A stretch of 46,506 nt of DNA from a virus (taxonomy: Duplodnaviria; Caudoviricetes). Location of the stretch: positions 1 to 46,506 of the IMG/VR virus record IMGVR_UViG_3300032326_002117, one strand, 5' to 3'. Numbering within the stretch: the first letter of the stretch is position 1; each line of letters begins with the position of its first letter. The notes under the pieces were generated by a model. That model worked only from the letters and a program-made list of their open reading frames with translations. It was not told where the DNA came from and did not search any database. Shown one piece after another: positions 13,827-38,424 of this stretch. The position numbers and the translations under genes were made by a program.

Positions 13827-14041
13827 AATTTTTAATTTGCAATTCCAAACTGGGGTGATAGTTCTATCACCCCAAGGGATGGGCCTCAAATAAAATAAAT
13901 ATTTTATTTGATCTGTGGTGTTTGAGGCCCCCCATCTTTTTCCAAATAAATTATTTTTTTTAGCTCACTTCATTAAAATTTACTGGCATAGAGTATACCG
14001 GAATGATAATATTCTATATCGGTTTCATGGAGGAGCCTATT

Positions 14042-15355
14042 ATGTCAGATAACAAATTTTCATTCCTTGAACTGGACGATGCGCCAGTCAAAGTACAGCC
14101 TAACCAGTCCGTTTTCACGGCTGTACAATCCCTGCAACCAAAAGATGGTGCTACCGCAAAGCAAGATGCCAATGGCAATTGGGTAAACGCTATCGGTCTT
14201 CAGTCTACAGCAACACATCGCCATGTCGCAAAGGTATGGCAGGACAAGTGTTCACCACTTGCAGATTTCATTGAGACTGTCAAGGAACAATCCAAGACCA
14301 AGTTTGACTATGTCAAACCAGAATCTGATGTACGCCTTCAGGACGCTTCGACCCTGACCAATGGCATGACCCTTACAAAGTCTGGTCTCAATTCGCTTCG
14401 GTCATTCACTGACATTCCATCGTCCATGGTTTCTTTCTTAGAAGAGCGTGGTTATGATGAAGACTTGACCAGATTTGTCAATTCTGAATTGAATCGTCGT
14501 GAACAAAACTGGAAAGACGATGGCAAGGAATCAAGGGAATTCCGTGTTCGTGTCCGCCAAGATGATAATGGCAACGATGCTGTACGAGCTGTTGTATCAG
14601 GTCGTTATGGCGTGATTGATAACCATGAGGCAATGGAGATGATAGCAAATTCTTTGCCATCATTATCTGATGCTCTTGCGTCTCACATATCCAATGATGG
14701 CGATGATATCTTTGGTAACGTGCTTTTGCCCGATTACATGAAGAGCGAACCTGACTCGGACTACGGTGTTGGCATTGCATTCAGGAACAGTGAGATTAAG
14801 AATTCTACCTTCAACATCTCCCCGTTCCTCTTCCGTGCTATATGCCTTAACGGTATGATTTGGGGTCGGCAGGATTCCAGTATCCAAATTAATCAAAAGC
14901 ACCTTGGCAACATTGACCGCATAGAATTGCAACAAAAGGTCAATCATGCCGTCAAGGTAGCATTGACACAAGGTAATGACCTTTTGACTTTGCTTGGACA
15001 TTCCAAACACGTTAAGGTTGAGAATCCATTACAGGTGATTGCACAACTTTCCCGTGACAATGGTATGACCATAGAGCAGGGTCGTGCATGGCACAAGGGA
15101 TACATGGAATCCCTAACTGAAGCGAATGGTCAACTACATGACCGTTCTGCATTCGGGATTGTCAATGGATTGACACGTTCTGCACAACTTTACAAGGGTT
15201 CTACCCGTGAAAGCATGGAAATAACCGCTTCCTTGATACTTTCACCTGCTATTGATGCAGATTTGCAAGCAATAAGCAAGAGATGGGGCAGAATTGCCGA
15301 TAATGCATCTCAATTGAAGGAAAAAGTAGTGCAACAGTACGCTTATATAGGCTAA
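14042..15355 (+). CDS. DUF932-family protein
   Basis: RAVVSGRY..IDN, NSE......ISP..FR..C.NGMI, FGIVNGLTRSAQ; GGAGG before the ATG at 14042. Confidence 0.75.
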   Translation: MSDNKFSFLELDDAPVKVQPNQSVFTAVQSLQPKDGATAKQDANGNWVNAIGLQSTATHRHVAKVWQDKCSPLADFIETVKEQSKTKFDYVKPESDVRLQDASTLTNGMTLTKSGLNSLRSFTDIPSSMVSFLEERGYDEDLTRFVNSELNRREQNWKDDGKESREFRVRVRQDDNGNDAVRAVVSGRYGVIDNHEAMEMIANSLPSLSDALASHISNDGDDIFGNVLLPDYMKSEPDSDYGVGIAFRNSEIKNSTFNISPFLFRAICLNGMIWGRQDSSIQINQKHLGNIDRIELQQKVNHAVKVALTQGNDLLTLLGHSKHVKVENPLQVIAQLSRDNGMTIEQGRAWHKGYMESLTEANGQLHDRSAFGIVNGLTRSAQLYKGSTRESMEITASLILSPAIDADLQAISKRWGRIADNASQLKEKVVQQYAYIG

Positions 15356-15545
15356 AACCTGCATAAGTGACACTAAATCCCCTTATAACACGCTTATAAG
15401 GGGATTATTCTGCTTAAAAATAATTTATTTGCAGCTCCGCCCATTGGGGTGGTAGGTCTACCACCCCAAAATATCCATGTCAAATAAAATAAATTTTCTT
15501 GCATCTCTTGTATGAGGTGATATAATTCAGATTGAGGAAACCACT

Positions 15546-17531
15546 ATGATAGTTGATGACATGAGAGCCACAGTTTTGGTCAATGGAACGATGACAGAAT
15601 CGTTCTTTACTGTTAAGCAAGAGAACCTTGCACATATCTTTTCTATCCTACGCAACAATTTGTATTCTGACAAGGCTGGTGCAATCATTCGTGAATATTG
15701 CACAAATGCTTACGATGCTCACGTTCAAGCTGGCATCAAAGACACTCCAATTTCAATCAAGTGCCCAACATCATTCCACCAATTGCTTTGCATTCGTGAC
15801 TATGGTTATGGTTTGTCAGAAGATGAGATTTTCAACATCTATGCATCCTATGGTGAATCCACAAAGCGTAACACAAATGACCAAGTAGGAATGATGGGTC
15901 TGGGTTCCAAGTCTGCATTCTCTTACACTGATTCATTCACCATCATATCTTACAATCAAGGTATGCAGAAAAATTACCTTGCATACATTGATGATTCTGG
16001 CATCGGTAAGGTCATGAAGGTAGAAGAGAATCCCACCACTGAGACTGGAATTGAAATTCAAATTCCTGTAGCACGTTTTGATTGTTATAAGTTTGAGAAT
16101 GCCATCACGAAACAATTGAAATTTTTCAGTCCAAAGCCTGTTATCAATCTCGCATATGTCCAAAGGTCTTTAGAAGAGAATCTCAATATTCACATCCATG
16201 GTGATGGGTACGATATCATCAATTCCTACGACACACATTTTGTTGTGATGGGAAATGTTGCATATCCTTTTACCACTGAGACATTTGAGAATCACCCGCA
16301 TTTCAAAGATGCAATTAACAGCCTGACTGAACATTCATTAAAAATTGTTCTGTATGCAAAGATAGGTGATGTAATACCATCTGCTTCCCGTGAATCTTTG
16401 GACTTGTGTGAGAAAACCATCAATTGGATTGGTAATTCGTTAATCAATGTATCTGATGACGTTAAGCAAAACCTTGTTAGCCAGATGGATTCTTCCGACA
16501 CAATCTGGAATACAAAAGTAAGATTTTCCAATCTGAAATCCAAATTCCAAAGATTATTGACTGGCTACACAAAAGATGGCATTCTGTGTGATTCAAACCA
16601 GACTGATGTACCAAAGATTCCACTCATCACAGCCAAGAGACTGAATGAGAACAAGTTTGAGGCTGTTGAGAAAATTTACAATACATCCCGGACTGTAATT
16701 TATGTCAGTAAAGGTGACGTAACATCTGGCTCAATCAAAAAGCGGATTAAGTTGGACAATCATTCATCTGATTTGTTGTATGCTGTTGAATGCAAAGATA
16801 GAGCCACATACAATGAATTTATCAATCATCCTGAAATCATCGGCGCAAACATCATAGACCTTGCGACAATTGAACTACCAAAGATTGAACGTGAGAAAAC
16901 AGCGTCCAATCATGATGCTTATCAGTTTGTAGGTGACAGATATAATAATCAACCAAGAGATGCATGGCAAAAGACCCGTGTTAATTTCAAACTTGGAACA
17001 GGCGTATACATCAAGATTAGCAATTATAATGTCGAAGGCTTCTCTCCACATATGATGTACAAGGTGCTTGAATCTCTTAAGGACTTGGGACATGAAATCA
17101 CCTTGTATGGCATCCGAGATAGTGATTCATCAAAATTGGGTGCTGGCTGGAAACACCTTAAAGTTTACGTGCAAGAGGTCATAGATAATTTGCCACAATC
17201 ATTCAAGGATAGTGCTTCCAGAGGTTACATCCATGATTATATTGATATTGATACACGCTCGTTGTATGATTCATTTGCTCACTTAGATAATGACCCATTC
17301 AACTTTAAGGACATTGTAGACTTTGATAACTACAATTATGATGATACTAAAGCAATTCAAACGATAAGTTTGTTCATCAACTGCAATTTTAGATATGATT
17401 TGACAAAAGAGAAGCAAATTGTCAATGAATTGAAAGAATTAAGGTCAAAGTACCCCTTAATTAAGTATACACAGATACATAGCGGTTCAATTCCGTACAT
17501 TAAGGAGTACATAGAGGCTATGAACAGGTAG
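15546..17531 (+). CDS. rIIA: rIIA-like protein, copy 2
   Basis: Same GHKL and PSASRESL motifs as 7269-9248; upstream of rIIB. Confidence 0.88.
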   Translation: MIVDDMRATVLVNGTMTESFFTVKQENLAHIFSILRNNLYSDKAGAIIREYCTNAYDAHVQAGIKDTPISIKCPTSFHQLLCIRDYGYGLSEDEIFNIYASYGESTKRNTNDQVGMMGLGSKSAFSYTDSFTIISYNQGMQKNYLAYIDDSGIGKVMKVEENPTTETGIEIQIPVARFDCYKFENAITKQLKFFSPKPVINLAYVQRSLEENLNIHIHGDGYDIINSYDTHFVVMGNVAYPFTTETFENHPHFKDAINSLTEHSLKIVLYAKIGDVIPSASRESLDLCEKTINWIGNSLINVSDDVKQNLVSQMDSSDTIWNTKVRFSNLKSKFQRLLTGYTKDGILCDSNQTDVPKIPLITAKRLNENKFEAVEKIYNTSRTVIYVSKGDVTSGSIKKRIKLDNHSSDLLYAVECKDRATYNEFINHPEIIGANIIDLATIELPKIEREKTASNHDAYQFVGDRYNNQPRDAWQKTRVNFKLGTGVYIKISNYNVEGFSPHMMYKVLESLKDLGHEITLYGIRDSDSSKLGAGWKHLKVYVQEVIDNLPQSFKDSASRGYIHDYIDIDTRSLYDSFAHLDNDPFNFKDIVDFDNYNYDDTKAIQTISLFINCNFRYDLTKEKQIVNELKELRSKYPLIKYTQIHSGSIPYIKEYIEAMNR

Positions 17532-17735
17532 GTTTCCTCAAATAATACCTGTTCAGAAGGGTGGAGCTTTTCCACCCTTTTTTTATTTGTCAACCCCGAT
17601 GTGGGGTGGTAGTCTTACCACCCCAATGAGAAAGCTCGCAAATAAAATAAATTTTTCCTATATAAAAAATATTTTGTTGCAGTGGTATAAAGAGATATGG
17701 TATCATTGTCTGTTAGCAAAATAATGGAGAGAAAA

Positions 17736-18920
17736 ATGGATAATATACCAGTCATTCACAACACTGACCCAATCTCAGGGTCTCTTACTGTATTCCTTGA
17801 CGGCAAGCAATACAAGATTTTTGTATCTGAGCCAAATTTCCAATCTGCTCTAAACGCATATAAAAGCAAAGACTGGGAATCTCTTCGCAATATTGTAAAT
17901 CCTGCTGAAGCCTTCAAGAAACTCTATGCCAAGTATGAGCAGATTGAGGTTAAGGATGGCAACGTCTTTGTCAGCGGAGAGCCAATCTCTACACTTGTCG
18001 CAAATCGTATCCTTGATTACTTGTCAATGGAACTTGATTGTGTCCCTATCTTCAAGTTTATCACCAAGTTAAATTTGAATCCAAGCAAACGTGCAGTAGA
18101 TGAACTGTACACGTTCCTTGAGCATAAGTTCTTGCCAATCACTGATAATGGTAACTTTCTTGCTTACAAGGCATTGCGTTCTGACTACACTGATGTTCAC
18201 ACTGGTAAATTTCTCAACACTGTAGACTCAGTTTTGGAAATGCCACGCAACAAGGTGGATGATAACAAAGAGGTAGGATGCTCTTACGGCTTCCATGCTG
18301 GCACTCTTGAATACGCCAGAGATTTCCGACCTTCCAATGGCAAGTTGGTTGTAGTGGAAATCAACCCAGCAGATGTGGTGTCGATTCCAACAGATTGCCA
18401 ATGCCAGAAACTGCGTACCTGCAAGTACATGGTTCATGCGGAATATGAGGTTCCGCTTGAAGACCTCACCTATGAATCACGCTACACCACAGAGTATGAT
18501 GATGATGTAGACCGAGAATGGGATGATGATTCTGATGATGAGGGATGCTGTAAATGCTCTGAATGTGACTATTGTTCAATCGATTGCGATGAATGCAATT
18601 GCTGTAATGACTGTTGCGATTGCGGGGATTTCCATGCAAATGTATGTATGGCAGACCCTGATGCACCAAAGACAGAAATCCAGCTCGAATTGAATCTTGA
18701 TAATAAGATAACCTCAAATTGGGCAGATGAAAGATTTCAATATCTTGTTATGTTGTCATGGCTTTATTGCCATCGACGACCAGCAGTTGGAAATGCTTTA
18801 AAAAGTTTCTATAAGGATGTTGATGACCATCATCGAATCAATCCTATATTTGCTATCCTTAAGCAATTCACATCTGACGAGGATGCTTATAAGATTTATA
18901 AAGAATTTACAAATTCATAA
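17736..18920 (+). CDS. rIIB: rIIB-like protein with acidic and Cys-rich C-terminal extension
   Basis: NPS.RAV.ELY.FL, LPITD.G.FLAYK, EMPR..VDD...GCS.G.H, V.INPADVVSIP.D...K.RTC.Y. Confidence 0.88.
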   Translation: MDNIPVIHNTDPISGSLTVFLDGKQYKIFVSEPNFQSALNAYKSKDWESLRNIVNPAEAFKKLYAKYEQIEVKDGNVFVSGEPISTLVANRILDYLSMELDCVPIFKFITKLNLNPSKRAVDELYTFLEHKFLPITDNGNFLAYKALRSDYTDVHTGKFLNTVDSVLEMPRNKVDDNKEVGCSYGFHAGTLEYARDFRPSNGKLVVVEINPADVVSIPTDCQCQKLRTCKYMVHAEYEVPLEDLTYESRYTTEYDDDVDREWDDDSDDEGCCKCSECDYCSIDCDECNCCNDCCDCGDFHANVCMADPDAPKTEIQLELNLDNKITSNWADERFQYLVMLSWLYCHRRPAVGNALKSFYKDVDDHHRINPIFAILKQFTSDEDAYKIYKEFTNS

Positions 18921-19125
18921 GAATCCTGATTTGTCAAGAGTATCCCCGGAGAAATCTGGGGATATTTTTTTATTTGAAGCTTTACCCATGGGGTGATAAT
19001 ATTATCACCCCAATAAATAAAATGATCAGAATAATTTTCATATATTTCACCTATTTCAAAATAATCAAGGTATAATGTATATGTTGATGGCGAGGTACAG
19101 CCAAAGACATGGTATAATAGATTAT

Positions 19126-19206
19126 CCTCCGGTGGTGGAACGGTATACACGACGGACTTAAAATCCGTTGGCGCAAGCCTTACGAGTTCGAATCTCGTCT
19201 GGAGGA
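19126..19206 (+). tRNA. tRNA-Leu (TAA)
   Basis: Loop CTTAAAA, variable arm GGCGCAAGCC, GTTCGAATC. Confidence 0.92.
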
Positions 19207-19209
19207 CTT

Positions 19210-19325
19210 GGAAGAGGTTAGACAAAAGAGTAATCTTAGTCATGTCATGAAGTCATCATTGTAAGTTTTGTTCAAATCGCTACTGGTTAACATGTCACCA
19301 AGTCGGGCAGAACATAACCTCTTTC
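19210..19325 (+). ncRNA. putative structured RNA between tRNA-Leu and tRNA-Lys
   Basis: Terminal 11-bp stem 19210-19220/19315-19325 and internal stem 19265-19273/19305-19313 with G-U pairs. Confidence 0.4.
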
Positions 19326-19333
19326 TTTAGTTT

Positions 19334-19405
19334 GGGTTGGTAGCTCAGAGGTAGAGCAGTGCCCTTTTAAGGCATTGGTCGTGGGTTCGAATCCCACCCG
19401 ACCCA
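19334..19405 (+). tRNA. tRNA-Lys (TTT)
   Basis: GGGTTGG/CCGACCC acceptor; loop CTTTTAA. Confidence 0.95.
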
Positions 19406-19502
19406 TTTCACTTGTCTTATCTCCCCAAGTGAATCAATCCCCTTCTCCGACAAGAAGGGGATTTTCTTTTGCATATGTCTTTGATATGTGATATAAAAGG
19501 AT

Positions 19503-19994
19503 ATGGAAAACACTACTATTGCTCCCACTTTTGAGATTCATGTCCAGTTTAGTTGGAAATATCCCGGTAAGCCAATTAAAAATATAGTCAAGGATGGCTA
19601 CATTCAATCTATCAATACAGAAGATAAATTGATTGCCGAAGAGTTTATCAATACCTTCATTAGCAACTATGAGATTGGTATTTGCGAAGTTACAGACATG
19701 AAGATTCTTTCAATCAAGAGAGTATTTACTTTTGATGAATGGGTGGAGAAATACAAGCCAATTCAGAATCATATAGAAGAATCAAGCACATTTGAGGGTT
19801 ATGCTTTTGAAACATATGGTGAAGAGTTTGATTTTGTATGTAATCAATCTCCAGACAAAATTTGGACTTTACGAAATTTAGGATATCGAGAAGTTATTAC
19901 ATTTGGCTTAGGGTGGGTTGACCGAGACTTTTACTTTGTCACTGAGAAGCCATGTGAAAAAGAAGATGAATTGAAACAAATCGTTGTGATATAA
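19503..19994 (+). CDS. conserved hypothetical protein
   Basis: W.EKYKPI.NHI...FETYGEE..FV...IWT...G...VDR..Y.VTEKP motif. Confidence 0.7.
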   Translation: MENTTIAPTFEIHVQFSWKYPGKPIKNIVKDGYIQSINTEDKLIAEEFINTFISNYEIGICEVTDMKILSIKRVFTFDEWVEKYKPIQNHIEESSTFEGYAFETYGEEFDFVCNQSPDKIWTLRNLGYREVITFGLGWVDRDFYFVTEKPCEKEDELKQIVVI

Positions 19995-20008
19995 TTCGAG
20001 GAAACAAA

Positions 20009-20212
20009 ATGCCAAACGATACACTTAATTATTTATCTGAGAAAACCGAGCATGATTTGTTAGTCATACTTGAAGGATTTCGAATGCTTTTGGCTGATGC
20101 TGAGTTATTCGATATGCTGGCTGAAAAGTTAGATTATCATGATGATTGCCTAATTGAATTAAGAGAAGATGTTCAAAATTATCTTGAAGATGTTCTTGTA
20201 GATGTGGTATAA
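20009..20212 (+). CDS. hypothetical protein
   Basis: GAGG SD; 67 aa. Confidence 0.6.
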   Translation: MPNDTLNYLSEKTEHDLLVILEGFRMLLADAELFDMLAEKLDYHDDCLIELREDVQNYLEDVLVDVV

Positions 20213-20222
20213 TTAGTTTGTT

Positions 20223-20307
20223 GGAGAGGTGGCTGAGTGGTCGATAGCGACTGTCTTGAAAACAGTTAACGTGAAAGCGTTCGCAGGTTCGAATCCTGTC
20301 CTCTCCT
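20223..20307 (+). tRNA. tRNA-Ser (TGA)
   Basis: GGAGAGG/CCTCTCC acceptor; loop CTTGAAA; long variable arm. Confidence 0.95.
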
Positions 20308-20320
20308 TTTTTAAAACACC

Positions 20321-20626
20321 ATGACTAAAGAACAAGCAGAAGAAATTAAAACAACAATAGATGGTTTTAATAAACTTTATCATCCTTTAACTTTGTCTTT
20401 TGATATGTATAGAAATCCAAAAGAAAACCATGATGATAATTGGTTTGTAACAATTGTTTATCATGTTACCCCAGATGATTGGTTTACTTTTGTTAGCTTA
20501 GGTTTTAATTTTGAAATGGTATCAGATAAGCTTAAAGGATATCAATTTGCTTTGGAAGCAGTGCAAGCATATCAAGAAGAATATGGTAATTTAAAATTTT
20601 CTCATTCTGGCTTGCCTTTGGGGTAG
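20321..20626 (+). CDS. hypothetical protein
   Basis: 101-aa ORF. Confidence 0.6.
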   Translation: MTKEQAEEIKTTIDGFNKLYHPLTLSFDMYRNPKENHDDNWFVTIVYHVTPDDWFTFVSLGFNFEMVSDKLKGYQFALEAVQAYQEEYGNLKFSHSGLPLG

Positions 20627-20791
20627 GATTCAATATTGAAACAGAATGAGAGCTATCCCCCAGTTTAGTAGTGTTTTCTGGGGGATTTTTTTATGCATGG
20701 GGTTATAATATTATAACCCCAATTCTCTTACTCAAAATAAAATTTGCATTTCCGGATAGTGTGATATAATGTTTTCAAGTGAGGTGATTCA

Positions 20792-20947
20792 ATGTCGAAG
20801 AAAAAAATTAACCCATGGACTTATTTAGAGCCATTATATTTTATAATATATTTCATTATAGCAATTATTGGTGGAATTATATTTTACCCGTTTATGTTGT
20901 TTGCTAAATCAAAATCACACCATGAGGAAAGTGGTTATGATAAATGA
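20792..20947 (+). CDS. small membrane protein (51 aa, not in ORF track)
   Basis: GAGGTG SD; one hydrophobic segment; ATGA overlap with 20944. Confidence 0.6.
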   Translation: MSKKKINPWTYLEPLYFIIYFIIAIIGGIIFYPFMLFAKSKSHHEESGYDK

Positions 20948-21174
20948 AATTTGTACTTTACGAAATAACAGATAATTACGATATTATCATTAAGTTGTCT
21001 TTCGAAGATATTAATTATCTAAGTGCTTTCATTGAACAACATACAGAAGAAAAGAAATACGAGCCCAAATTTCTTGTATTAGAGTTTGATTCCCATGGTG
21101 ATATTGAATATCTTTCTGAGTATCAAGGAATCGAACAAAAAAGCAGAAAAAGTGTGGCGGAATATACAGATTAA
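20944..21174 (+). CDS. hypothetical protein
   Basis: 76-aa ORF. Confidence 0.6.
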   Translation: MKFVLYEITDNYDIIIKLSFEDINYLSAFIEQHTEEKKYEPKFLVLEFDSHGDIEYLSEYQGIEQKSRKSVAEYTD

Positions 21175-21311
21175 GGGTATTATTAGTTTGTTCAAGACGA
21201 CTTCAGCGTGGAGAACAAAATCCAGAAGGTGGTGCTTCTGGGAGCATGAGAAGGGTGTGTCTTAATCTCCTTTGCCAGTTCGTATCTCCTTGATACATTC
21301 TTCTCATGATT

Positions 21312-21378
21312 TGGTGGGTAGCTTAAGTAGAGCAGAGGAACATAAGCCTTTGATATGGGTGCAAATCCCATACCACCT
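21312..21378 (+). tRNA. degenerate tRNA-like element (possible CAT anticodon)
   Basis: GGTGG/CCACC acceptor, TAGCTT..AGAGC D-arm, ATGGG-TGCAAAT-CCCAT T-arm; abnormal 8-nt anticodon loop. Confidence 0.45.
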
Positions 21379-21381
21379 TTT

Positions 21382-21454
21382 GGGCGATTAGCTTAATGGT
21401 TAAAGCAGGGGACTCATAATCCCTTGAGTGGGGGTTCGAGTCCCTCATCGCCCA
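21382..21454 (+). tRNA. tRNA-CAT, probably Ile2 (lysidine) or elongator Met
   Basis: GGGCGAT/ATCGCCC acceptor; loop CTCATAA; GGTTCGAGTCC. Confidence 0.9.
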
Positions 21455-21693
21455 TTGTTTCTGGTTGGTTGGTGTTTTGCATGTCCTACTCCTCCCCTCA
21501 TTGAAATATATGAGGGGATTTTTTTATTTGAAAATCGAGCATGGGGTGATTGAATAATCACCCCAATATTTCGAGATAAAACATACCACAATTACCAGTA
21601 AAAGAATAAATTGGTTGATATAAATACACGCATTAGGTATACTATATTACGTGATGAAAATCACACAATGACAAAAGAAAGTCCTACAATAAA

Positions 21694-22053
21694 ATGTCAA
21701 TTGTTCATGAAATGCAGGTAGCGGTTCAGGAACAGAAGCGTCATCGTGGTAACCCTAAATTGGGCGTTTCTCTTCCTTATTCTGTTGTGAGAGAAGCAAT
21801 AAAATCACATCAATTCAAAAACTTCAAGCAGTATCAGGATTGGGTTCGTGAGAATAATCCTGAAGGTTTTCCATTACATCCAAAAATGACCTACTCAAGG
21901 AAGAATGAATGGATAAGCAAGGCTCATTTTCTTGGTAAAACAGAAGACATGACTCCAGAGATTGTCGCACAAGAAGATAAGACCATAGAAACCCCGATTG
22001 CTTTTGGTGGATTGAGACGTATTATAAGGCAAATACTGGGGATTAGCAAGTGA
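21694..22053 (+). CDS. integrase-repeat-unit-like (putative DNA-binding) protein
   Basis: Y......I....F....QY..W......P..P...Y....W.....FLG resembles the INT_rpt unit. Confidence 0.55.
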   Translation: MSIVHEMQVAVQEQKRHRGNPKLGVSLPYSVVREAIKSHQFKNFKQYQDWVRENNPEGFPLHPKMTYSRKNEWISKAHFLGKTEDMTPEIVAQEDKTIETPIAFGGLRRIIRQILGISK

Positions 22054-22250
22054 TTCTAAAGGGGAGAGTAAAATCTCCCCTTTTTTATTTGCCATGAGAA
22101 GCTGGGGTGATAATACTATCACCCCAAAAAACAAGAAACAAATTTATTAAATAGTGCATAATTACGACCTATTAATTTGCACCATATATCACATTATGCT
22201 ATACTTCTTTTGTGGTTGATAGAACAGTAACATCAACCAAGGAGAATATC

Positions 22251-22805
22251 ATGTACAAGTCCCTACCAATTGAAGATGTCATGGACATCATCAAAGGTTC
22301 CAACATTCAGTATATGGCGCAATATCAGCGTTTTTACCGTGACAACAACCTCAAAAACTTGGGTCTCCCTTACAACCCTCAACTGACATATGGTGACAAG
22401 TTCCCCGGTGTTGATAAGTTCCTTGGCAATCCTGAAGGCACTGCACTCAAAGCGTCAAGAGAAGTCCTTTCAAACAATGCTAATAAAAACAAGCCTTGGA
22501 ACCATATTCGCAAGGGTACAAAGAAGGCTCGTAAATCACAATATGCAACTAAGCCAGTGCTGCCAGTATTGCCAGTATTGTCTGATGTGCAACCTGTTAT
22601 TGTACCGGCTAAATCAGATACAGTCTCTTTTGCTAACATAATTAAGACCCTTTATAACGATTATGGTATTGCATTACCGACATTGTTTCGTTTGAATGAA
22701 GAAGCAAAACAAACCTCTTCAATGAAGTTAGAAGCAATCAATGAGACCCTTACTGTACTGGTCAAGATTGCGATGGAGAAAACTAACTCTAAAGTCAAGG
22801 TCTGA
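22251..22805 (+). CDS. integrase-repeat-unit-like protein, paralog
   Basis: QY..FY......LPYNP..TY...F.G...FLG; GGAG SD before the ATG at 22251. Confidence 0.55.
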   Translation: MYKSLPIEDVMDIIKGSNIQYMAQYQRFYRDNNLKNLGLPYNPQLTYGDKFPGVDKFLGNPEGTALKASREVLSNNANKNKPWNHIRKGTKKARKSQYATKPVLPVLPVLSDVQPVIVPAKSDTVSFANIIKTLYNDYGIALPTLFRLNEEAKQTSSMKLEAINETLTVLVKIAMEKTNSKVKV

Positions 22806-22879
22806 TACTTGACAAACCCTATTCGATGACTATAATAGTATTGCAGTTCGCTGTAATACTATTTTTTTATAGGTATGTA

Positions 22880-23101: not shown

Positions 23102-23180
23102 TTTATTTACAAGATCTTCATGGGGTGGTAATCTTACCACCCCATTTTTTATGCCAAATAAAAATGTGATAAAATAGATA

Positions 23181-23591: not shown

Positions 23592-23987
23592 ATGAAAATC
23601 GCTATTAGTGCTTTTTCCAATCAAGATAACTTGACTGCATTTTTCGTCATTGATTGCAGTAACAGTTTGCATTTAGACTTGGAAGATTTTATCTCGCATC
23701 ACAAATCTTACGAATTTATGTCTTTTAAAACTGATGATGTTTATTTATTTACTGGGACATATCAATATCTGAGAAAAAAAGTAAGTTATTCTGAAATCTA
23801 TAAAAATCAATACACAAACAAAGTTACTGATTTCAATTATTCAAAGAAGCAACCAGAATCAATCAAGATTTATGCAAATCGTTTTTTGTGCTATTTTTAT
23901 GCTGAAAAAGATGGCATTGTATATCAGTCTCATGATATGACAGTAGATATAGTTAAAGAATGGTGCAAGGAGTTAGTAGTTGTCTGA
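23592..23987 (+). CDS. hypothetical protein (probably leaderless)
   Basis: TTGACT..TATAAT 6 nt before the ATG. Confidence 0.65.
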   Translation: MKIAISAFSNQDNLTAFFVIDCSNSLHLDLEDFISHHKSYEFMSFKTDDVYLFTGTYQYLRKKVSYSEIYKNQYTNKVTDFNYSKKQPESIKIYANRFLCYFYAEKDGIVYQSHDMTVDIVKEWCKELVVV

Positions 23988-24321
23988 CACAGTATGGATT
24001 TACTTTTCAAAAACAGGTACGGGATACGAACTAAAAGGTTCTGATGTAATTTCTGGCTTTGATGCATTTATTAATATGGATGGCACTTATATGGTTGAAT
24101 ATGCTTACTCTGATATGAAGAATTCTATGCACTTCTTTATATATGAATGGGACAATTCACAGAAGAAGCGCAGAACAATCTTTGAAGGATACCAGAGAGA
24201 AAATATTTTGGTGAACTTTGCAAAGAATGTTCATGTATGCCACTTAGTTAGACAAGCAATTTACAAAGAATACCTGATGGATGATGAAGAATTGGAGTTA
24301 GAAAAAAATGCAAACTCGTGA
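23980..24321 (+). CDS. hypothetical protein
   Basis: AGGAG SD; overlapping operon. Confidence 0.6.
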   Translation: MSDTVWIYFSKTGTGYELKGSDVISGFDAFINMDGTYMVEYAYSDMKNSMHFFIYEWDNSQKKRRTIFEGYQRENILVNFAKNVHVCHLVRQAIYKEYLMDDEELELEKNANS

Positions 24322-24820
24322 ACAAAAACTAAAACTCCTAAACAAAACCATAGACACTCTTTGGCATGGTGTTCAAGATACTAAAACTGGCGATTACCCT
24401 AAGATTGTCAACTTGTACAAAGAAGTGCTGAAAATCGAACCAAAAGACAGAGATGCTTGGGAAAATATGGTTTGGCTTATGTGGAGCTTGGCTATTAATA
24501 ATAAAGACACTGCATGGCTTTTAGAGGCTGAAAAGTTTGTAAGAAGATATCTTTCTATTATGCCAAATGGATATCGCTCTTATGAATATGTTGGTATGTT
24601 TTATCGCTCAATGATAAAAGATGAAAAGTTAGCGGTGAGATATTATGAATCTGCAATTAGATGGAAAGATGCTCCAAAGAGCACTCATCATTCTCTTATT
24701 AACTTGTGCGTTAAATCTAATGACAAAATAAGAGCCATTGGGTATTGCAAAATGACACTTGCCAGATTCCCCAATGACCCTTTTACGAAATCGAAACTAT
24801 TATTTTTAACTAAGAATTAA
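24308..24820 (+). CDS. TPR-like helical repeat protein
   Basis: Y..VLKIEP....AW, A..YYE.AI...., LARFPNDP repeats. Confidence 0.7.
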   Translation: MQTREQKLKLLNKTIDTLWHGVQDTKTGDYPKIVNLYKEVLKIEPKDRDAWENMVWLMWSLAINNKDTAWLLEAEKFVRRYLSIMPNGYRSYEYVGMFYRSMIKDEKLAVRYYESAIRWKDAPKSTHHSLINLCVKSNDKIRAIGYCKMTLARFPNDPFTKSKLLFLTKN

Positions 24821-25177
24821 TTTTTCATATGGAATTGAAATAGGAGCGCCTTGGGTCTTTCCATCTTTTAAGCGGATAACAACAACATAAACTTTACCAT
24901 TATGTCTGTAATCATCAAGAACGCTACCTGTTTCAATTTCTTTATGTTTATCGAGCCATGTAATTTGTTTTCCAACATCAATGATTCTGTCTTCGTTTCG
25001 AGCTATTAACTCAGAATGAAGCATTGCATTTTTTGTTTTCAATTCATTTACATCTTCGTCTAACTTATTGTTTAACTCCATCAGGTTTTTATTATTTTCT
25101 TTGAGATTTGTATACATCAAACCCAACAAACCACAAAAAAATAATACAACTGTGAACAATACACTTATTACTATCAT
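24806..25177 (-). CDS. membrane-anchored coiled-coil protein
   Basis: N-terminal transmembrane segment then heptads; AGGAG SD. Confidence 0.65.
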   Translation of the reverse strand: MIVISVLFTVVLFFCGLLGLMYTNLKENNKNLMELNNKLDEDVNELKTKNAMLHSELIARNEDRIIDVGKQITWLDKHKEIETGSVLDDYRHNGKVYVVVIRLKDGKTQGAPISIPYEKLILS

Positions 25178-25209
25178 TTTATCCGTCTCCTAAATTGTAT
25201 TATACTCAT

Positions 25210-25479
25210 ATGAAAGAAATAATAACTGCAATACACAAGAATGGAACCTTTAAGGAAAATAAGATCCTTAGGCCTCATCTCATGGACAGATTAGGTTTGA
25301 GGTTAGTTTTTCCTGAAGGCGCACAATGTATTCTCTGGACTAATGGTAAAAAATATTACGCCAGGTGTGAAGCTTTTGGTTCTTTATTCACTGTAAACAT
25401 TCCACAAAAAATAGGGGATGATATTTGGCTTAGATTCAAAACTCAATATGAAGGAAATTATTCTTATGAAGATTTTTGA
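25210..25479 (+). CDS. hypothetical protein
   Basis: ORF whose stop abuts the palindrome at 25480. Confidence 0.55.
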   Translation: MKEIITAIHKNGTFKENKILRPHLMDRLGLRLVFPEGAQCILWTNGKKYYARCEAFGSLFTVNIPQKIGDDIWLRFKTQYEGNYSYEDF

Positions 25480-25583
25480 TGGGGTGATAATATTATCACC
25501 CCAAGATCCGTTTAGCAAATAATTAATTTTTCTTGCATCAGTATACCTAATATGATATAAAAGAGTATCGAAAGGTTACTACA

Positions 25584-26259: not shown

Positions 26260-26410
26260 TCACATCCCTTGGCTTTTGTCAAGGGATATTTTTTTTATTT
26301 GTCAAGCTCTCCCTTGGGGTGGTAAGATTACCACCCCATTTTATTTTGTCAAATAAATTAATTTTTGTTGCAAGGTTAGTATATTATGATATACTTTAAT
26401 CTGTAAGGAG

Positions 26411-26937: not shown

Positions 26938-26990
26938 CCAGCTTCGGCTGGTTTTTTTATTTGACAGATGATCCTGGGGTGATAATATTA

Positions 26991-27161
26991 TCACCCCATA
27001 AATAAAGAATCGCCAGAACTTTTATCCTGGCGATTTTTGTGTTTATCTTTTCGAGTGTATTTAGTTTTATCTTTAAACACTATGGGTCTTTGCCTACTTG
27101 CTCTCATCATTTCTGTTCCTGATGCAAGATTCAGCTCCTCAACATACTTTCTCTTTTTCAT
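26991..27161 (-). CDS. ArfA/BrfA-like basic peptide (56 aa, not in ORF track)
   Basis: AGGAG SD; RPIVFKDKTKYTRKDKHK motif; hairpin 27008-27035 inside the CDS. Confidence 0.55.
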   Translation of the reverse strand: MKKRKYVEELNLASGTEMMRASRQRPIVFKDKTKYTRKDKHKNRQDKSSGDSLFMG

Positions 27162-27435: not shown

Positions 27436-27598
27436 CTCTGCTCTCCCACTACAATATACCAAACTATACACAAATCTGCAACAAAATTAATTTATTTGAC
27501 ATACTACCTTGGGGTGATAATATTATCACCCCAGATTCGATATTTGTCCATAAAATAATATAATGATACAATAGGTCATCAACTGTGAGGAGATTCTT

Positions 27599-27976: not shown

Positions 27977-27983
27977 GGACAAA

Positions 27984-28286: not shown

Positions 28287-28315
28287 AAAAATCCCTCTTC
28301 GGAGGGATTTTTCTT

Positions 28316-28522: not shown

Positions 28523-28677
28523 ATTACAAACCTCCAAGCATAATAATACCACAATATACCACTGTAGACAAATATTATTTATGGGGTGATAATATTATCA
28601 CCCCAAGCTGAGTAAATAAAGTAAATTCCATTATGACATATGTGATATAATTGGATATCAAAGACTGGGAGAATCAC

Positions 28678-28890: not shown

Positions 28891-28919
28891 AAAATCCCCC
28901 AGAAATGGGGGATTTTAGT

Positions 28920-29192: not shown

Positions 29193-29357
29193 AACTACCT
29201 CCTTATGACAGAAGTATATCATAATATACAAGCCTCACCACTTAATTAATAATTTATTTTTGTATTGAATATGGGGTTATAATATTATAACCCCAAGAGC
29301 TGTTATGCAAATAAAAAAATATCCCTTGACTTTCGTCAAGGGATATGGTAGTGGAGT

Positions 29358-29540: not shown

Positions 29541-29571
29541 CTCTATCTCCTTACTCCTAAAGTATATCACA

Positions 29572-29922: not shown

Positions 29923-30011
29923 GACGTAAGTATACCATAATATACTACCTGTGCAAGAAAAATTAATTTATTTGACAAAATTATTTGGGGTGATTTTTAT
30001 ATCACCCCAAA

Positions 30012-30472: not shown

Positions 30473-30582
30473 CGTATACCTCACTTACAGAATAAGTATA
30501 CCAGATTATATCAGCGATGCAAATTTATTTAATTATTTGACAAAAGGATCTGGGGTGATAATATTATCACCCCAAGGTACAG

Positions 30583-31365: not shown

Positions 31366-31496
31366 GACGTAAGTATATCACAATATACCAGCATTGCTAC
31401 AAATATTTAATTATTTGACAAAATATTCTGGGGTGGTATTATTACCACCCCAAGTGCTAAGCTATAAATAAAAAACTCCCATTTCTGGGAGCTACT

Positions 31497-31841
31497 TTAC
31501 TTTGCGTAGTCAGTGCTTTGGAACGTTGACTGCTTGAACATATCTGCTATCTTGTAAGCCTCCGAAAGAAAAGCATAGATAGCACTTGAAAGAACCAAAA
31601 AACTGGTTTGGTTATGCAAAAGTTCTTTTGGTGGTATTTGGTAACACTGTTCATTTGCATCATTGAGAAATGTATAGACTGTGCCTGAAATCAGTGTCTC
31701 GGTTTTGTTATATAGAACATGGATTTGTCCAAAATCATGTGTAATAACTAATACTAAATCTTCAGTGGCAAAAGAGTCAATTGATTCCTTAACAAATGTT
31801 TCAGTGTCATAAATAAACTTTGCATTACTACTATAGTTCAT
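31497..31841 (-). CDS. hypothetical protein
   Basis: TAATG coupling. Confidence 0.6.
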   Translation of the reverse strand: MNYSSNAKFIYDTETFVKESIDSFATEDLVLVITHDFGQIHVLYNKTETLISGTVYTFLNDANEQCYQIPPKELLHNQTSFLVLSSAIYAFLSEAYKIADMFKQSTFQSTDYAK

Positions 31842-32155
31842 TAGATTACTCTTCTCTTTTCATTCTCATCTGCGTTACTTATCATACAGCATAAAAAATA
31901 ATAAAACAATACTGCAAAACAAGCAAGCATACCATTACTAAACAGCCAATATGCGGTTTTGCCATCACCTGTAAAAATCCACTCAAACAAACCATACACC
32001 AATGAAAGCGGAGTAGCACAAGCAAGAATGGTAAGAATGTTTTTCAATACTTTTAGGCCTGTTGTGGTGTAAAGTCTCATATGTGCAAAAAAAGCAAGCA
32101 ATCCACCGCCCCAAACAACTACATACAACAAACGATTAACCATATCTAAAGTCAT
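31841..32155 (-). CDS. three-TM membrane protein
   Basis: GGAGG SD; three hydrophobic segments. Confidence 0.65.
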   Translation of the reverse strand: MTLDMVNRLLYVVVWGGGLLAFFAHMRLYTTTGLKVLKNILTILACATPLSLVYGLFEWIFTGDGKTAYWLFSNGMLACFAVLFYYFLCCMISNADENEKRRVI

Positions 32156-32367
32156 CCTGCAACCTCCCAATTTTCCGCCAAAACATCTTCTGTTTTTAAA
32201 GTATAATATGCCCAGTTAATAATATCGCCTGTTGTAAAAATGATTTTGAATTTCAATCGCTCATCTTCTAACTTAACAAAAACGACAGTATTTTTGTCAT
32301 TATAAGGCTTTGTTCTTGTGATAGTCTTACCATCACGGAGCATTGGCAATACCTGTTCAAGTTTCAT
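32152..32367 (-). CDS. DUF2829/Tad2-like small protein (candidate signalling-nucleotide sponge)
   Basis: M.LEQ.L..LRDGK.I.R ... EDVLAENWEV matches the family's terminal motifs. Confidence 0.55.
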   Translation of the reverse strand: MKLEQVLPMLRDGKTITRTKPYNDKNTVVFVKLEDERLKFKIIFTTGDIINWAYYTLKTEDVLAENWEVAG

Positions 32368-32492
32368 GATTAGAGTATACCATAATATACTAACCTCGCA
32401 AGAAAAATTAATTTATTTGACAAAGAAAAATGGGGTGGTTTAAGTACCACCCCAAAAAGAAAACCCCAAGATAAATTTCCTGGGGTTTTATA

Positions 32493-33060: not shown

Positions 33061-33204
33061 CGTCCTATCCCCTTACACTTAGTAGTATACCACAATATAC
33101 TACCCTTGCAAGAAAAATTAATTTATTTGACAAAAGGATCTGGGGTGATAATATTATCACCCCAAAACAAACAAACCCCCAAGAAAATTCTTAGGGGGTT
33201 TATC

Positions 33205-33502
33205 TGATGGTTACACTATAGAGGATTGATTTGTGGTTAGCTGGACTTCAACCAGTACGGAACACAAGGGCAGTTCTTTCGATGGTCTCTGCCTCCGATG
33301 TTATCCTTGTCCTAAAAGGAGCATGATACCCAACCACAAATCATTATACTTGGAGATATTGTTTGCGTCAATAGTCTCCAAGGTTTCAGTAAAAGATTGT
33401 GGACTAAACCACTCCAAGGTTGCTACCCTTATTTGGACTACGCAATTAGTCCGAGCCGTTCTGGTCTTTTACTGGATGAAGGTTGCTAATTACTTCAACC
33501 TT
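33205..33502 (-). ncRNA. putative ~300-nt multi-stem structured RNA
   Basis: Stems 33228-33240/33330-33342, 33349-33361/33369-33382, 33387-33396/33465-33474, 33479-33502 plus nested hairpins; lies before terminator 33173-33201. Confidence 0.6.
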
Positions 33503-34253: not shown

Positions 34254-34383
34254 AGGTTAAGTATATCAGTTTATACCAGATATGCAAGGAAATTTATTTT
34301 ATTTGACATAAAAAAATGGGGTGGTAGTTGTACCACCCCAAAATCCTGCCAACAATATAAATTATTAGCAGGATAGAATTTTT

Positions 34384-34620
34384 TTAATTTACTCCAGTTT
34401 CCAGTCTGACGGAATATGATTTGTTTTTAGCCCACTGCATTCCAAACAAATCAAAAATTCCAATTACTAATAATGCAATATGCCATTCTTCAAACTGACT
34501 ATGAATATCAATCACACTGCCAAAAGTAAATTTGGTATTTTCATAAATGATTGAAAACATCAGAGCTGCAACAAAAACCTGAACATACAAACATAACTTT
34601 TCATAACTCTTTAACTTCAT
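34384..34620 (-). CDS. two-TM membrane protein
   Basis: AGGAG SD; two hydrophobic segments. Confidence 0.6.
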   Translation of the reverse strand: MKLKSYEKLCLYVQVFVAALMFSIIYENTKFTFGSVIDIHSQFEEWHIALLVIGIFDLFGMQWAKNKSYSVRLETGVN

Positions 34621-34674
34621 AACTTTTCTCCTACACAGGTAGTATACCATAATATACTACCTGTGTTAATTAAT

Positions 34675-35196
34675 TTAAGGAAGATTCGCAACAAAGTCAC
34701 TGAGGAAGGAATCGTAATTTCTTTTAGAGTTATCCTTAAGAATACGCTCTATGGTCATGCGACTTTCGAGTAATTTGTAATGGGAATCATTGTTTTGTTT
34801 TTCGATGAGTTTTTCGATGGATTCTTTAAGCTCTTCTGACTTAACATAGAATGAAGCATCAATATCATCCAGTGTTGCGATAAAGTCTTCAGCAACCAAA
34901 CCACCATGTTGAGATTTCTTGCCATGAGAGAGACGAGCAACCTCAGTAACAGGAACAAGCATCCAATCAATCTTAGAATCAAGTGTGCCAATTCCAAGCA
35001 GATGAATTGCCATGTTGATAGTTTCCATCTGATTGAAGTTTTGCACAGAACTGTTAAGGTCAGTTACAGAAACTTTCAATTGATAATCTTCACCATTGTA
35101 AACAAAATATTTAATCTTGTTCTTGATAATAAGAGAGTCACCCAAAATTTCTTTGAGCGATTCAAGACCATAAGTGTTAATGCTTCGGTTTTTCAT
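34675..35196 (-). CDS. hypothetical protein
   Basis: TATAAT 6 nt before the ATG at 35196. Confidence 0.65.
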   Translation of the reverse strand: MKNRSINTYGLESLKEILGDSLIIKNKIKYFVYNGEDYQLKVSVTDLNSSVQNFNQMETINMAIHLLGIGTLDSKIDWMLVPVTEVARLSHGKKSQHGGLVAEDFIATLDDIDASFYVKSEELKESIEKLIEKQNNDSHYKLLESRMTIERILKDNSKRNYDSFLSDFVANLP

Positions 35197-35232
35197 AACT
35201 GGATTATATCTCACTTTATATCAGAACGCAAG

Positions 35233-35290
35233 AAAAAAAAGACCAGATATTTCTACCTGGTCTGGGTGAAAGACAAACTATGAGCACACT
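35233..35290 (-). ncRNA. putative anti-RBS small RNA
   Basis: TTGCAT/TATAAT promoter, short CAT-containing pyrimidine-rich seed, AGACCAG terminator; no ORF. Confidence 0.45.
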
Positions 35291-35426
35291 TATTATATCA
35301 AAATATATTTATCATGCAAATTAATTTATTTCTTTATTCTGGGGTTATAATATTATAACCCCATGAGCTGTTTCGCAAATAAAAAAATATCCCTTGACAA
35401 GTGCCAAGGGATGTGATAGTGGATTT

Positions 35427-36023
35427 TTAGTCTTTGAAGCGGTCTGCGTTGGTCTCGATGACTCGCTTGGCTTCCGCTACCGTCATGAGGTCAATCAATG
35501 CTTTTTCAATGACCTTTTCCATCTGTTCAATTTCAAAGTCACCATTCTTCGTGTAGATGGCGTTTGTGCCATATCGGGTTGTATTGAATCCCACATTGTT
35601 CTTGAAATTGTTTACCACAATATGGAAATTGCGAATGAGGTCTTCGTACACTTCATCATTGTTTGAGGAGATGAAGGTAAGGTGCGTAAAGTGTTGATTC
35701 TTGCGGTCACGGGTATTCTCATACCAGTAATTCTTGTGGAACCACTTTCGAGATGCGTCTGAACCCTTCTCGGCATGAATGCGGGTAACCAAGAGAATTG
35801 GTGTACCATTGTAAGAGAACAAGTAATCGCCTGTATGCTTGAAGTCCAAAATTCCCAAGCCACCATCAAACATATCTGCGGTAATCTTGTTTGTGCCTGT
35901 GAGAAGGCTGTTAAGTTCATTGTACTTTGTTACAAGAACACTATTCACAACAAAGAGGCTATCTTGTTGAGCCTGAGATTGAGGGGTTGTTGCACCATGA
36001 GAACCAATTTGAATACCTTGCAT
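35427..36023 (-). CDS. hypothetical protein, weak resemblance to EcoRI/MunI-type endonuclease fold
   Basis: AAGGAGG SD; FDGG ... W.HKN remnants. Confidence 0.6.
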   Translation of the reverse strand: MQGIQIGSHGATTPQSQAQQDSLFVVNSVLVTKYNELNSLLTGTNKITADMFDGGLGILDFKHTGDYLFSYNGTPILLVTRIHAEKGSDASRKWFHKNYWYENTRDRKNQHFTHLTFISSNNDEVYEDLIRNFHIVVNNFKNNVGFNTTRYGTNAIYTKNGDFEIEQMEKVIEKALIDLMTVAEAKRVIETNADRFKD

Positions 36024-36243
36024 CGTATTCCTCCTTGTTGATAGTATACCACATTATCAACCCTGTGCAAGAAAAAACTTTTTATTTGACAGGTGATTTT
36101 TGGGGTGGTAGTTGTACCACCCCAATCCAGGCTTTGTAAATAAAAAAATATTTTTTATTTTTTCTTGACAAAAACCTGGAAAGATGATAGCTGAAAAATA
36201 TATTTAAGCATCCCTTGACTTTCGTCAAGGGATGTGGTAAAGG

Positions 36244-36711: not shown

Positions 36712-36938
36712 GACTACAATATACCACCTTATACCAGCAGTTTGCAAGTAATTAGGTGTGAAAAAATACACTAAAAATAAATTTGACAAACTGAAAAAAA
36801 TGTGATAGGAAAATAAAAAAATATTTAATTTGACAAATTTTTCTGGGGTGGTATTTGTACCACCCCAATTGAAGCTTTGCAAAATAAAAAAATAAATTAT
36901 AATATCCCTTGACATCTGCCAAGGGATATGGTAGCTGT

Positions 36939-37133
36939 CTACTCTGCGTATATTTCAAGTTTATTTGTTTCAGGAATATACGTTATTTCAAATTCATCAT
37001 TGTTGATGAAATCTGCAATTTTTGCATTAAACTCTTCTTCAGTCATACCTTCGGCATAACCAAGGTCAGACATGGAGAGTTCCCAGAAGCGGTTGGTAGA
37101 AAAGGTAAGTTCTACAGTAGTGTTCTTGTTCAT
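36939..37133 (-). CDS. hypothetical protein (leaderless)
   Basis: TTGACA..TAATAT shortly before the ATG. Confidence 0.6.
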   Translation of the reverse strand: MNKNTTVELTFSTNRFWELSMSDLGYAEGMTEEEFNAKIADFINNDEFEITYIPETNKLEIYAE

Positions 37134-37239
37134 GTCTATATATTACGGTATAAAGTGGTATGTTGTCAAATTTATTATTGTAAGAACTATTAACTAATTA
37201 GCCCTTGCATCTGAATGTATAAAGTGGTATATTATGTAC

Positions 37240-37434
37240 ATGAACGAAATGCAAAGAGACACATCCTATACCTATAGCATTGAAGCCGGTATGCAAAAAG
37301 CATATGTGATAATTCTCCACAGAATCATCAAAAACAGCATCAAGAATAAATTTGTTCTTGCTGAAGCAGACCGCATACTTGAAGAATCAAACACTGCCTA
37401 TGAACGTGCAAAGGCTAAAGCAATGGAGATGTAG
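37240..37434 (+). CDS. hypothetical protein (leaderless)
   Basis: TTGCAT..TGGTATATT 6 nt before the ATG. Confidence 0.6.
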   Translation: MNEMQRDTSYTYSIEAGMQKAYVIILHRIIKNSIKNKFVLAEADRILEESNTAYERAKAKAMEM

Positions 37435-37561
37435 GCTCTATCATATAACCAGAGTTTTGTCAAGTAAAAAAAATATTTTATTTGATAAAATTCTGGGGTG
37501 GTTTGTGTACCACCCCAAATCCCCTAATGCAATATAAAATTACATTAGGGGATTTTATTTA

Positions 37562-37940: not shown

Positions 37941-38033
37941 GTCAATAGTATACCACAATATACCACCTTGACAAATTAAAATAATTTGCTGTGGATCCAT
38001 GGCAATCTTTATATAAGATGGTATACTTAAGCC

Positions 38034-38117
38034 ATGAACATAATCATCTCCATTATCGGCATCATCTTGAGTGCTATTCTTTTGTTGGCTACCATCACAA
38101 TCAACAAAGAAAAGTAA
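38034..38117 (+). CDS. 27-aa single-TM peptide (not in ORF track)
   Basis: TGGTATACT 6 nt before the ATG; MNIIISIIGIILSAILLLATITINKEK. Confidence 0.55.
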   Translation: MNIIISIIGIILSAILLLATITINKEK

Positions 38118-38152
38118 TTTGCAAAGTCTATATAAGGTGGTATACTTAATCC

Positions 38153-38323
38153 ATGAACACTAACGATGACCCAATGTTTACAATGTTCGTCTCCCAAGCC
38201 CTTCAGGAACTTGCCAAACAAAAGCCTGATATGTCGCAAGAAGACCTCTACGAAGAGGCTATTGAACTTGCATATGAGCGATGGGATTCCTACTGCGAAT
38301 CACAATACTTCCAGGGAGAGTAA
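38153..38323 (+). CDS. 56-aa acidic protein (not in ORF track)
   Basis: TTGCAA..TGGTATACT 6 nt before the ATG. Confidence 0.6.
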   Translation: MNTNDDPMFTMFVSQALQELAKQKPDMSQEDLYEEAIELAYERWDSYCESQYFQGE

Positions 38324-38424
38324 CATCTCCCTACCACACAATCTCTTTCTTGTCAAATTAAATTATTTTATTTACAAGGAAGGGATTGGGGTGATAATAT
38401 TATCACCCCATAATACAAGATATA

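Follow-up and report, generated by a model that had tools for sequence, protein, structure and literature searches.

In integrons, attC sites stand at cassette boundaries as folded-DNA sites of free sequence, with an imperfect stem and extrahelical bases; insertion of a cassette duplicates the site, and the cassettes, mostly promoterless, are read from one promoter. CUP repeats of IncN plasmids lie in the plasmid leading region under ArdK/ArdR control, and the host-takeover module of phage SPO1 forms two convergent clusters, in which we know of no palindromic joint. Closest to the locus described here are the promoter-stem-loop modules (PeSLs and PmSLs) of T4-type phages (Arbiol 2010, PMC2839356; Comeau 2014, PMC4122927), which, in the available parts of these papers, join a terminator, formed by the stem-loop, to a promoter, have crossovers across the module and, for PeSLs, yield demonstrated excised mini-circles; whether a targeted protein takes part is left undecided in the available part of PMC2839356. 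Here we analyze a 46,506-nt stretch of DNA, referred to as the window (positions 1 to 46,506 of IMG/VR virus record IMGVR_UViG_3300032326_002117, Caudoviricetes), in which 25 copies of a 24-bp palindrome punctuate a gene-cassette array. We propose, with a probability of about one half, that each boundary is a PeSL-like terminator-promoter joint with an added palindrome, which likely forms a cruciform or hairpin by extrusion and initiates exchange via general replication and recombination enzymes. PeSLs share the array logic; a separate, flipping, lineage-replaced palindrome did not turn up in the literature searched. Our literature search returned no paper on the element, and the string "palindrom" is missing from the main texts of PMC12619734 and PMC13573597.

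A scan of the window with the pattern TGGGGT-KRT-N6-AYM-ACCCCA found 25 copies, the first at 13851 and the last at 38387-38410, spaced 535-2359 nt apart (mean 1022), while the rest of the 46.5-kb window held zero extra copies with up to 3 mismatches or spacers of 6-19 nt allowed. A looser 12-base pattern gave one match per 200 shuffles of the window. Units point rightward up to 26315 and leftward from ~27.1 kb, so that the two arms are transcribed toward the center; copy 26975 is the convergence point, with a terminator on each side, and copies 27510 and 28582 are each flanked by two promoters, one to the left and one to the right. The initial annotation, which had placed 25 copies at unit boundaries within 13.85-38.41 kb, with rightward units left of ~27 kb and leftward units beyond, was borne out on both counts. 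It had also described a usual unit of terminator, palindrome with outer TTATTTG and CAAATAA arms, and promoter. These parts are real and their regularity was overstated: the left heptamer is exact in 16/25 copies, the right in 8/25 and both in 3/25 (10/25 if one mismatch is tolerated), a strict terminator rule is satisfied on 15/26 sides tested, and 19/25 copies have a scored sigma70-like promoter no more than 120 nt away. As at PeSLs, the repeated terminator and sigma70-like promoter precede small ORFans. Unlike the PeSL stem-loop, the array palindrome is separate from the upstream hairpin-plus-T terminator, and the module as a whole is still PeSL-like.

The palindrome itself is strikingly regular. 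Arm positions 1-9 were paired in 225/225 cases within the 25 copies, with covariation at positions 7/18 (GC in 22, TA in 3) and 8/17 (AT in 15, GC in 10), and none of the 225 pairs was G-T, versus 13 of 160 pairs (10 of 15 hairpins) in the adjacent terminators. Among 129 distinct window-type copies, 1159/1161 arm pairs were Watson-Crick. Because the search for these copies fixed positions 1-6 and left positions 7-9 free, the latter are the fair comparison, and here 386/387 pairs were Watson-Crick versus 66/120 in symmetric chance matches from bacteria. The relative G001, a 358-kb contig, has ten arm sequences and one imperfect copy. Perfect stems, set against the G-T pairs of terminators and of a non-coding RNA in the array, suggest that the element behaves as DNA that pairs in both strands, or is very often corrected.

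Relatives were found through the DUF932, TPR and RNA genes. They share the array layout, each lineage with its own core, and at least seven core types were seen: the window type, AGG...CCT with loops of 3-4 nt, GGGATG, a nearly all-A/T type, a perfect G6-TTAA-C6, TTAGGCTTG and CAGGGGTA. The loop has 6 nt in the window type and both 3 and 4 nt within G001. In every lineage examined, the palindrome sits at the same place and promoter distance despite wholly replaced sequence, and in the A/T-rich and G002 lineages it belongs to a symmetric four-part site of ~60 bp with fixed spacing. In the two near-complete relatives the motif is confined to the array: 20/23 matches fall in 154-181 kb of the 358 kb of G001, and 9/9 in 282-291 kb of the 300 kb of G002 (84% complete), which resembles the concentration of PeSLs in a hyperplastic, variable region. 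Replacement between lineages, loop flipping and confinement to one convergent 25-kb block set the palindrome apart from PeSLs. One relative, L143, carries a foreign-type copy together with its cassette, so matching cores appear unnecessary for transfer between lineages. A terminator family of the ATCCCTTGAC...GTCAAGGGAT type, repeated at many units (near 26260, 29310, 35375, 36200 and 36890), is common to all lineages, and some exchanges map there.

Similar palindromes occur elsewhere. In L001, L034 and ~40 similar small contigs, a near-identical palindrome, mismatched in some copies, lies between single-strand-binding-like and primase-like genes; about 40 such single-copy viral matches, which precede a primase-like gene in small phages (L034 was read), were set aside as unrelated. 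Another phage, L027 (2688-4640), has five related TGGGG...CCCCA palindromes that overlap the minus-10 of repeated promoters and look operator-like. A host regulator or REP-like element was considered and rejected: an estimated ~170 matches in GTDB genomes, versus ~140 expected, were spread over unrelated taxa, with none from Armatimonadota among the 80 titles shown.

Comparison of relatives revealed gain, loss and exchange of whole units, as at PeSLs. The inserts at copy 26975 in L136 and L139, different from each other and each between two copies, are a 479-aa ORF and a methyltransferase with an ICEA-like nuclease. Homology of the L136 insert to a similar-sized ATPase cassette of G001 was ruled out on comparison. 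L040/L043 lack units 36844-37494 and 34317-35340, L142-L144 lack unit 21542-22103, the segment from 26315 to 29986 is inverted in L168/L171, and in X10 contigs 36092 is joined to 37491 and 31368-32430 is replaced. When both genes flanking a junction were present (15 loci of the window type and nearest type), order or spacing had changed at 11/19 element junctions, one of which may be a paralogue artefact, versus 2/20 internal junctions (p 0.002). By eye, the switch point is 0-2 nt from the core edge in six joints (L040:3001, L040:4516, L043:5086, L136:8510, L145:7214 and L171:9220) and outside the core in about as many others (L136:227, L139:16365, L139:17074, L142:746, L144:8571 and L144:5076). 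Promoter-side spacers have been copied between paralogous units. A strict polarity rule, by which the core always moves with the terminator side, fits five joints; it was rejected because it fails at L136:8510 and for in-place core changes. The shuffling that the initial annotation had proposed as one option is seen in relatives as whole-unit insertions, deletions and one inversion with joints at the element; the element is used as a crossover site, not exclusively, since joints also fall in the terminator or promoter. Co-regulation, its other option, would be consistent with the promoter phasing described below, but the single candidate regulator is not universal.

A second kind of change affects the loop alone. 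Between the window and L136 (92-98% identical), the loop is reverse-complemented in place at 3/7 asymmetric copies, with 34-39 of 40 flanking positions identical. Over all loci, both loop orientations were observed at 25/43 element sites, 3/58 terminator-like sites and 5/24 other hairpins (Fisher p 3e-9, for sites that are not independent). Array elements flip ~10 times more often than adjacent hairpins, and among pairs with identical 35-nt flanks the loop was inverted in 14/47 pairs of elements versus 1/64. A/T-rich elements were flipped at 7/15 sites versus 0/10 for other A/T-rich repeats. In X1, the run best matching the window, single contigs span the asymmetric copies 21542-23121, 25480-26315 and 34317-36101 unbroken, so no fast switching of the loop is visible; such contigs omit rare forms. 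The inverted repeats altered by template switching in PMC8604942 are alike, as far as the available part describes them, in having perfect arms of at least 9 bp and a short spacer inverted in place. Unlike the array, where over half of the element sites are affected, those are rare and incidental, with ten events in yeast coding genes.

The initial annotation had seen no recombinase in the window, and a wider search gave a divided answer. Tyrosine integrase, serine resolvase, Y1 transposase and telomere resolvase families (PF00589, PF00239, PF01797, PF16684) matched in 0/5 relatives, whose records are 22-89% complete, as did RuvC and endonuclease VII families, and no site-specific recombinase was found among 253 G001 ORFs (those of at least 130 aa). 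A RusA-like junction resolvase gene, on the other hand, is present in 5/5 relatives (2 exceed the Pfam cut-off; PHROG E 3e-10) and in 19 viral contigs at 62-100%. Its D-x-D-N-x-x-K motif and later DD were matched by eye to D70, D72, N73, K76 and D90/D91 in the available part of PMC1636454, which also reports a preference of RusA for cleavage 5' of a CC at the crossover. In most cores the last bases are CC, close to the base of the stem. In G003/G004 the gene is ~0.5 kb from the first copy; in G001, where it occupies 139448-139873, and in G002 it is 11-15 kb from the array. For the DUF932 protein of the first cassette, an alignment-based fold is confident and has no PDB match (best VIA Z 5.4); the predicted model appears to resemble no recombinase among the structures compared. 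Replication and repair genes of G001 comprise Pol III alpha, clamp, loader, DnaB, RecA, RecJ, RuvB, UvsW, gyrase A and B, sigma factors and an SbcD-like gene; a Pol III-type replisome is a further difference from the PeSL phages.

We hypothesize that phage gyrase and the strong adjacent promoter would favor extrusion of the palindrome into a DNA hairpin or cruciform, and that RusA-like or SbcCD-like enzymes would cut the extruded form, or replication would template-switch there, either of which would turn the palindrome into a hot spot for loop flips and for excision, insertion and inversion of units. Two diagonal cuts with religation, or the template switch, would flip the loop. RecA-type repair against another copy could then delete, insert or invert units, with circular intermediates possibly arising. 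Inversion between copies on opposite arms would preserve the convergent layout, and insertion at a core would duplicate it, keeping one copy per boundary. Exchanges might end within the core or, as at PeSLs, extend into terminator or promoter sequence common to the units. With PeSLs the locus shares crossovers spread over the module and, as far as the incomplete relatives show, an apparent lack of a dedicated recombinase.

Several observations weigh against this reading. Stems of 9-12 bp are short for extrusion. At 19 distant loci both junction types are rearranged (13/15 element, 9/12 internal), and with gene loss counted the breaks, 69/149 at element versus 46/172 at internal junctions, do not differ significantly (p 0.087). 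Of 14 strictly defined clean joints only 3 overlap the core (~4% expected), and 2 of these 3 share one window site; among the finely mapped joints, roughly half fall outside the core, within terminator, T-tract or promoter sequence that the units have in common. Near 26736-26756, before the 26767 gene and overlapping its ribosome-binding region, lies another short perfect palindrome, whose 3-nt loop is likewise inverted in several lineages, and terminators may flip less often because selection on the RNA removes flipped forms. RusA is a common phage gene, it lies outside the window, and the preferred CC is missing from the cores of the A/T-rich lineages. Finally, intermolecular template switching gives both arm homogenization and spacer inversion (PMC8604942, available part), so symmetry and flips could come from it alone and symmetry need not reflect selection for a cruciform.

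A stronger form of the proposal, which we judge unlikely, is that the RusA-like or an unrecognized phage enzyme reads the structure, cuts the cruciform base and rejoins it, flipping the loop in place and swapping anti-defence cassettes between sites; if true, these phages would possess an integron-like system that dispenses with an integrase and whose site sequence is free to drift between lineages. Another explanation, tentatively possible, leaves the DNA unfolded: the palindrome would mainly serve, as duplex, to bind a dimeric phage regulator turning the whole early set on or off, shuffling would be of the ordinary PeSL type, and flips would come from template switching at a protein-blocked fork. 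Promoter geometry is in its favor. Distances from core to minus-10 cluster at 30-33, 40-44, 50-55 and 72-77 nt (101/112 scored promoters), with none at 34-39 or 45-49, and the center-to-minus-10 distance of 61-64 nt is kept in G001 and G002. Clusters ~10 bp apart in the sequence point to a bound protein, which also counts against extrusion, yet the phasing may descend from few promoter templates, since the promoters are not independent. The palindrome sequence is homogeneous within each lineage, as an operator would be, although the variable loop length (3 and 4 nt within a single genome, 6 in the window type) and the foreign-type copy tolerated in L143 fit an operator poorly. A pair of XRE-type genes flanks copy 28582, with a recognition helix that varies with core type where present, a correlation confounded by descent. 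Such a regulator is not present wherever the array is: HTH_3 was found in only 1/5 array-bearing records and is absent from 4/5, including G002 at 84% completeness, and the XRE genes had no tblastn match in long A/T-rich-type loci. Bacterial genomes contain the motif at about the frequency expected by chance, which makes a host regulator unlikely. On inspection, an inward promoter whose minus-10 would fall within the core was rejected, as it fits only some copies and lineages.

It is improbable, in our estimation, that a dedicated, unrecognized phage recombinase reads the folded site with the outer TTATT arms and cuts and rejoins at the stem base, in integron fashion with self-promoted cassettes. 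The six core-edge joints, the four-part site of the A/T-rich and G002 lineages, the repeated insertion at one central site and the flip frequency of weak A/T stems, which matches that of strong ones, would all suit such an enzyme; they have to be set against the many joints outside the core, the unbroken X1 contigs, in which no fast switching is visible, the predicted DUF932 model and the negative recombinase searches in the five incomplete records and the G001 ORFs. Least probable of all, we think, is a palindrome without function of its own that is carried along as part of a duplicated terminator-promoter module, its symmetry maintained by template switching and its copies homogenized by gene conversion. 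Copied promoter-side spacers, and the ability of template switching to account for symmetry and flips, are in its favor, but they leave unexplained why the palindrome is retained at the same place in every lineage examined while equal-length neighboring terminator stems remain imperfect.

Other known systems resemble the array in part. Like attC, its elements would be folded-DNA boundary sites of free sequence that are duplicated on insertion; unlike attC, the stems have no extrahelical bases, each cassette typically comes with a promoter and terminator of its own, inversions are seen, and IntI tyrosine recombinase was not found in the five incomplete records or the G001 ORFs. REP/TnpA-REP elements and IS200/IS605 ends call for a Y1 HUH transposase, and ResT/TelK sites for a telomere resolvase, each matched in 0/5 of those records. 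CUP repeats are an IncN plasmid feature, whereas the window is a jumbo-phage fragment. The SPO1 host-takeover module (cited in PMC2147016, available part) likewise groups short units, most of them monocistronic, behind strong promoters of the host type; unlike it, the array shows no terminal repeat, X1 contig depth being 15-19 inside and outside with no step at 13.85 kb.

Table 1. Features of the cassette array and its cargo, in window coordinates (L numbers, loci of relatives).
Feature	Position	Strand	Remarks
Cassette array	13851..38410		24 units between 25 palindromes; arms converge near 27 kb
Palindrome 1	13851..13874		left boundary, ahead of DUF932 gene; same in all nine DUF932 relatives examined (in part)
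Palindrome 2	15445..15468		terminator on left, promoter on right
Palindrome 3	17602..17625		pattern match
Palindrome 4	18989..19012		pattern match
Palindrome 5	20698..20721		TAT/ATA variant
Palindrome 6	21542..21565		loop inverted in L139; unit to 22103 missing from L142/L143/L144
Palindrome 7	22103..22126		pattern match
Palindrome 8	23121..23144		loop inverted in L136
Palindrome 9	25480..25503		pattern match
Palindrome 10	26315..26338		loop inverted in L136; region of a breakpoint of the L168/L171 inversion
Palindrome 11	26975..26998		convergence point between two terminators; two different insertions (L136, L139), each flanked by two copies
Palindrome 12	27510..27533		promoters both sides
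Palindrome 13	28582..28605		between divergent XRE-type HTH genes
Palindrome 14	29272..29295		TAT/ATA variant
Palindrome 15	29986..30009		second end of L168/L171 inversion
Palindrome 16	30551..30574		joint at core in L043 and L145
Palindrome 17	31429..31452		pattern match
Palindrome 18	32431..32454		loop inverted in L136 and L043; boundary of a replaced stretch in an X10 contig
Palindrome 19	33141..33164		pattern match
Palindrome 20	34317..34340		deletion joint in L040/L043
Palindrome 21	35340..35363		TAT/ATA variant
Palindrome 22	36101..36124		loop inverted in L040; joined to 37491 in an X10 contig
Palindrome 23	36844..36867		unit to 37494 cleanly missing from L040/L043
Palindrome 24	37494..37517		pattern match
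Palindrome 25	38387..38410		right boundary
DUF932 protein gene, first cassette	14003..15355	+	confident model, no solved-structure match
rIIA-like and rIIB-like genes, one unit each	15546..18920	+	
tRNA genes within array (Leu, Lys, Ser, Met and one weak match)	19126..21455	+	
Conserved block with TPR gene (24308-24820)	23980..25479	+	order kept in 13/13 window-type relatives
Two divergent XRE-type HTH genes	28316-28552; 28651-28890	-; +	
Tad2-like (Thoeris anti-defence 2-like domain) gene	32152..32367	-	PF11195 30 bits, cut-off 25
Structured non-coding RNA cargo, ~260 nt	33225..33490	-	not in Rfam 15

The window contains ten tRNA genes, rIIA/rIIB-like genes, UvdE, DUF932, two XRE-type HTH genes and a Tad2-like gene, and its genes have homologues in the 358-kb and 300-kb contigs; by this gene content it is a fragment of an uncultured freshwater jumbo phage. 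The datasets holding the window sequence are mostly freshwater metagenomes, with no RNA dataset listed among them, and isolated phages gave only short rIIA and tRNA matches. One G001 gene has its best named relatives in Armatimonadota (74%), a weak hint at the host. The labels "early" and "host-takeover/anti-defence" of the initial annotation depend on promoter type and a few annotations (Tad2-like, rIIA/B, DUF932); PADLOC matched 0/10 window cargo proteins, and Atlas searches with two conserved small genes returned no family.

The non-coding RNA is 75-98% conserved across 39 loci among the matches listed, with all palindrome types, and its motif is present in 15 viral contigs. Compensatory changes occur at 24 of 73 predicted pairs (20 sequences), and G-T pairs are present. 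No segment of it was seen to track palindrome type when the alignment was inspected. Several array genes have MEN(T/L) starts at or beside the predicted transcription start (window 11489, 19503; also loci L216-L229), which suggests leaderless messages. The window has two rIIA-like paralogues (7269-9248 and 15546-17531) versus one in G001. A 260-aa protein (40447-41229) is 100% identical to that at G001:149152-149931 while its neighbors are 60-70% identical, which argues for a very recent gene transfer outside the array. Six genes in 39943-46033 have a common N-terminal leader of the MNK(K/R)Q..L..IAN.LD type, possibly a head-packaging signal, on unrelated bodies, with more copies in G001 and G002.

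Taken together, these results bear on how large phages without an integrase gain and reorder accessory and anti-defence genes. The array offers a countable footprint at the DNA level in its loop flips, for which the terminator hairpins only a few bases off provide an internal control, as well as natural site variation over at least seven lineages and a named candidate enzyme, the RusA-like protein, so that the question becomes testable on plasmids without culturing the phage. It also maps ~45 small, predicted separately expressed genes and an unlisted RNA, which may be candidates for host-takeover functions.

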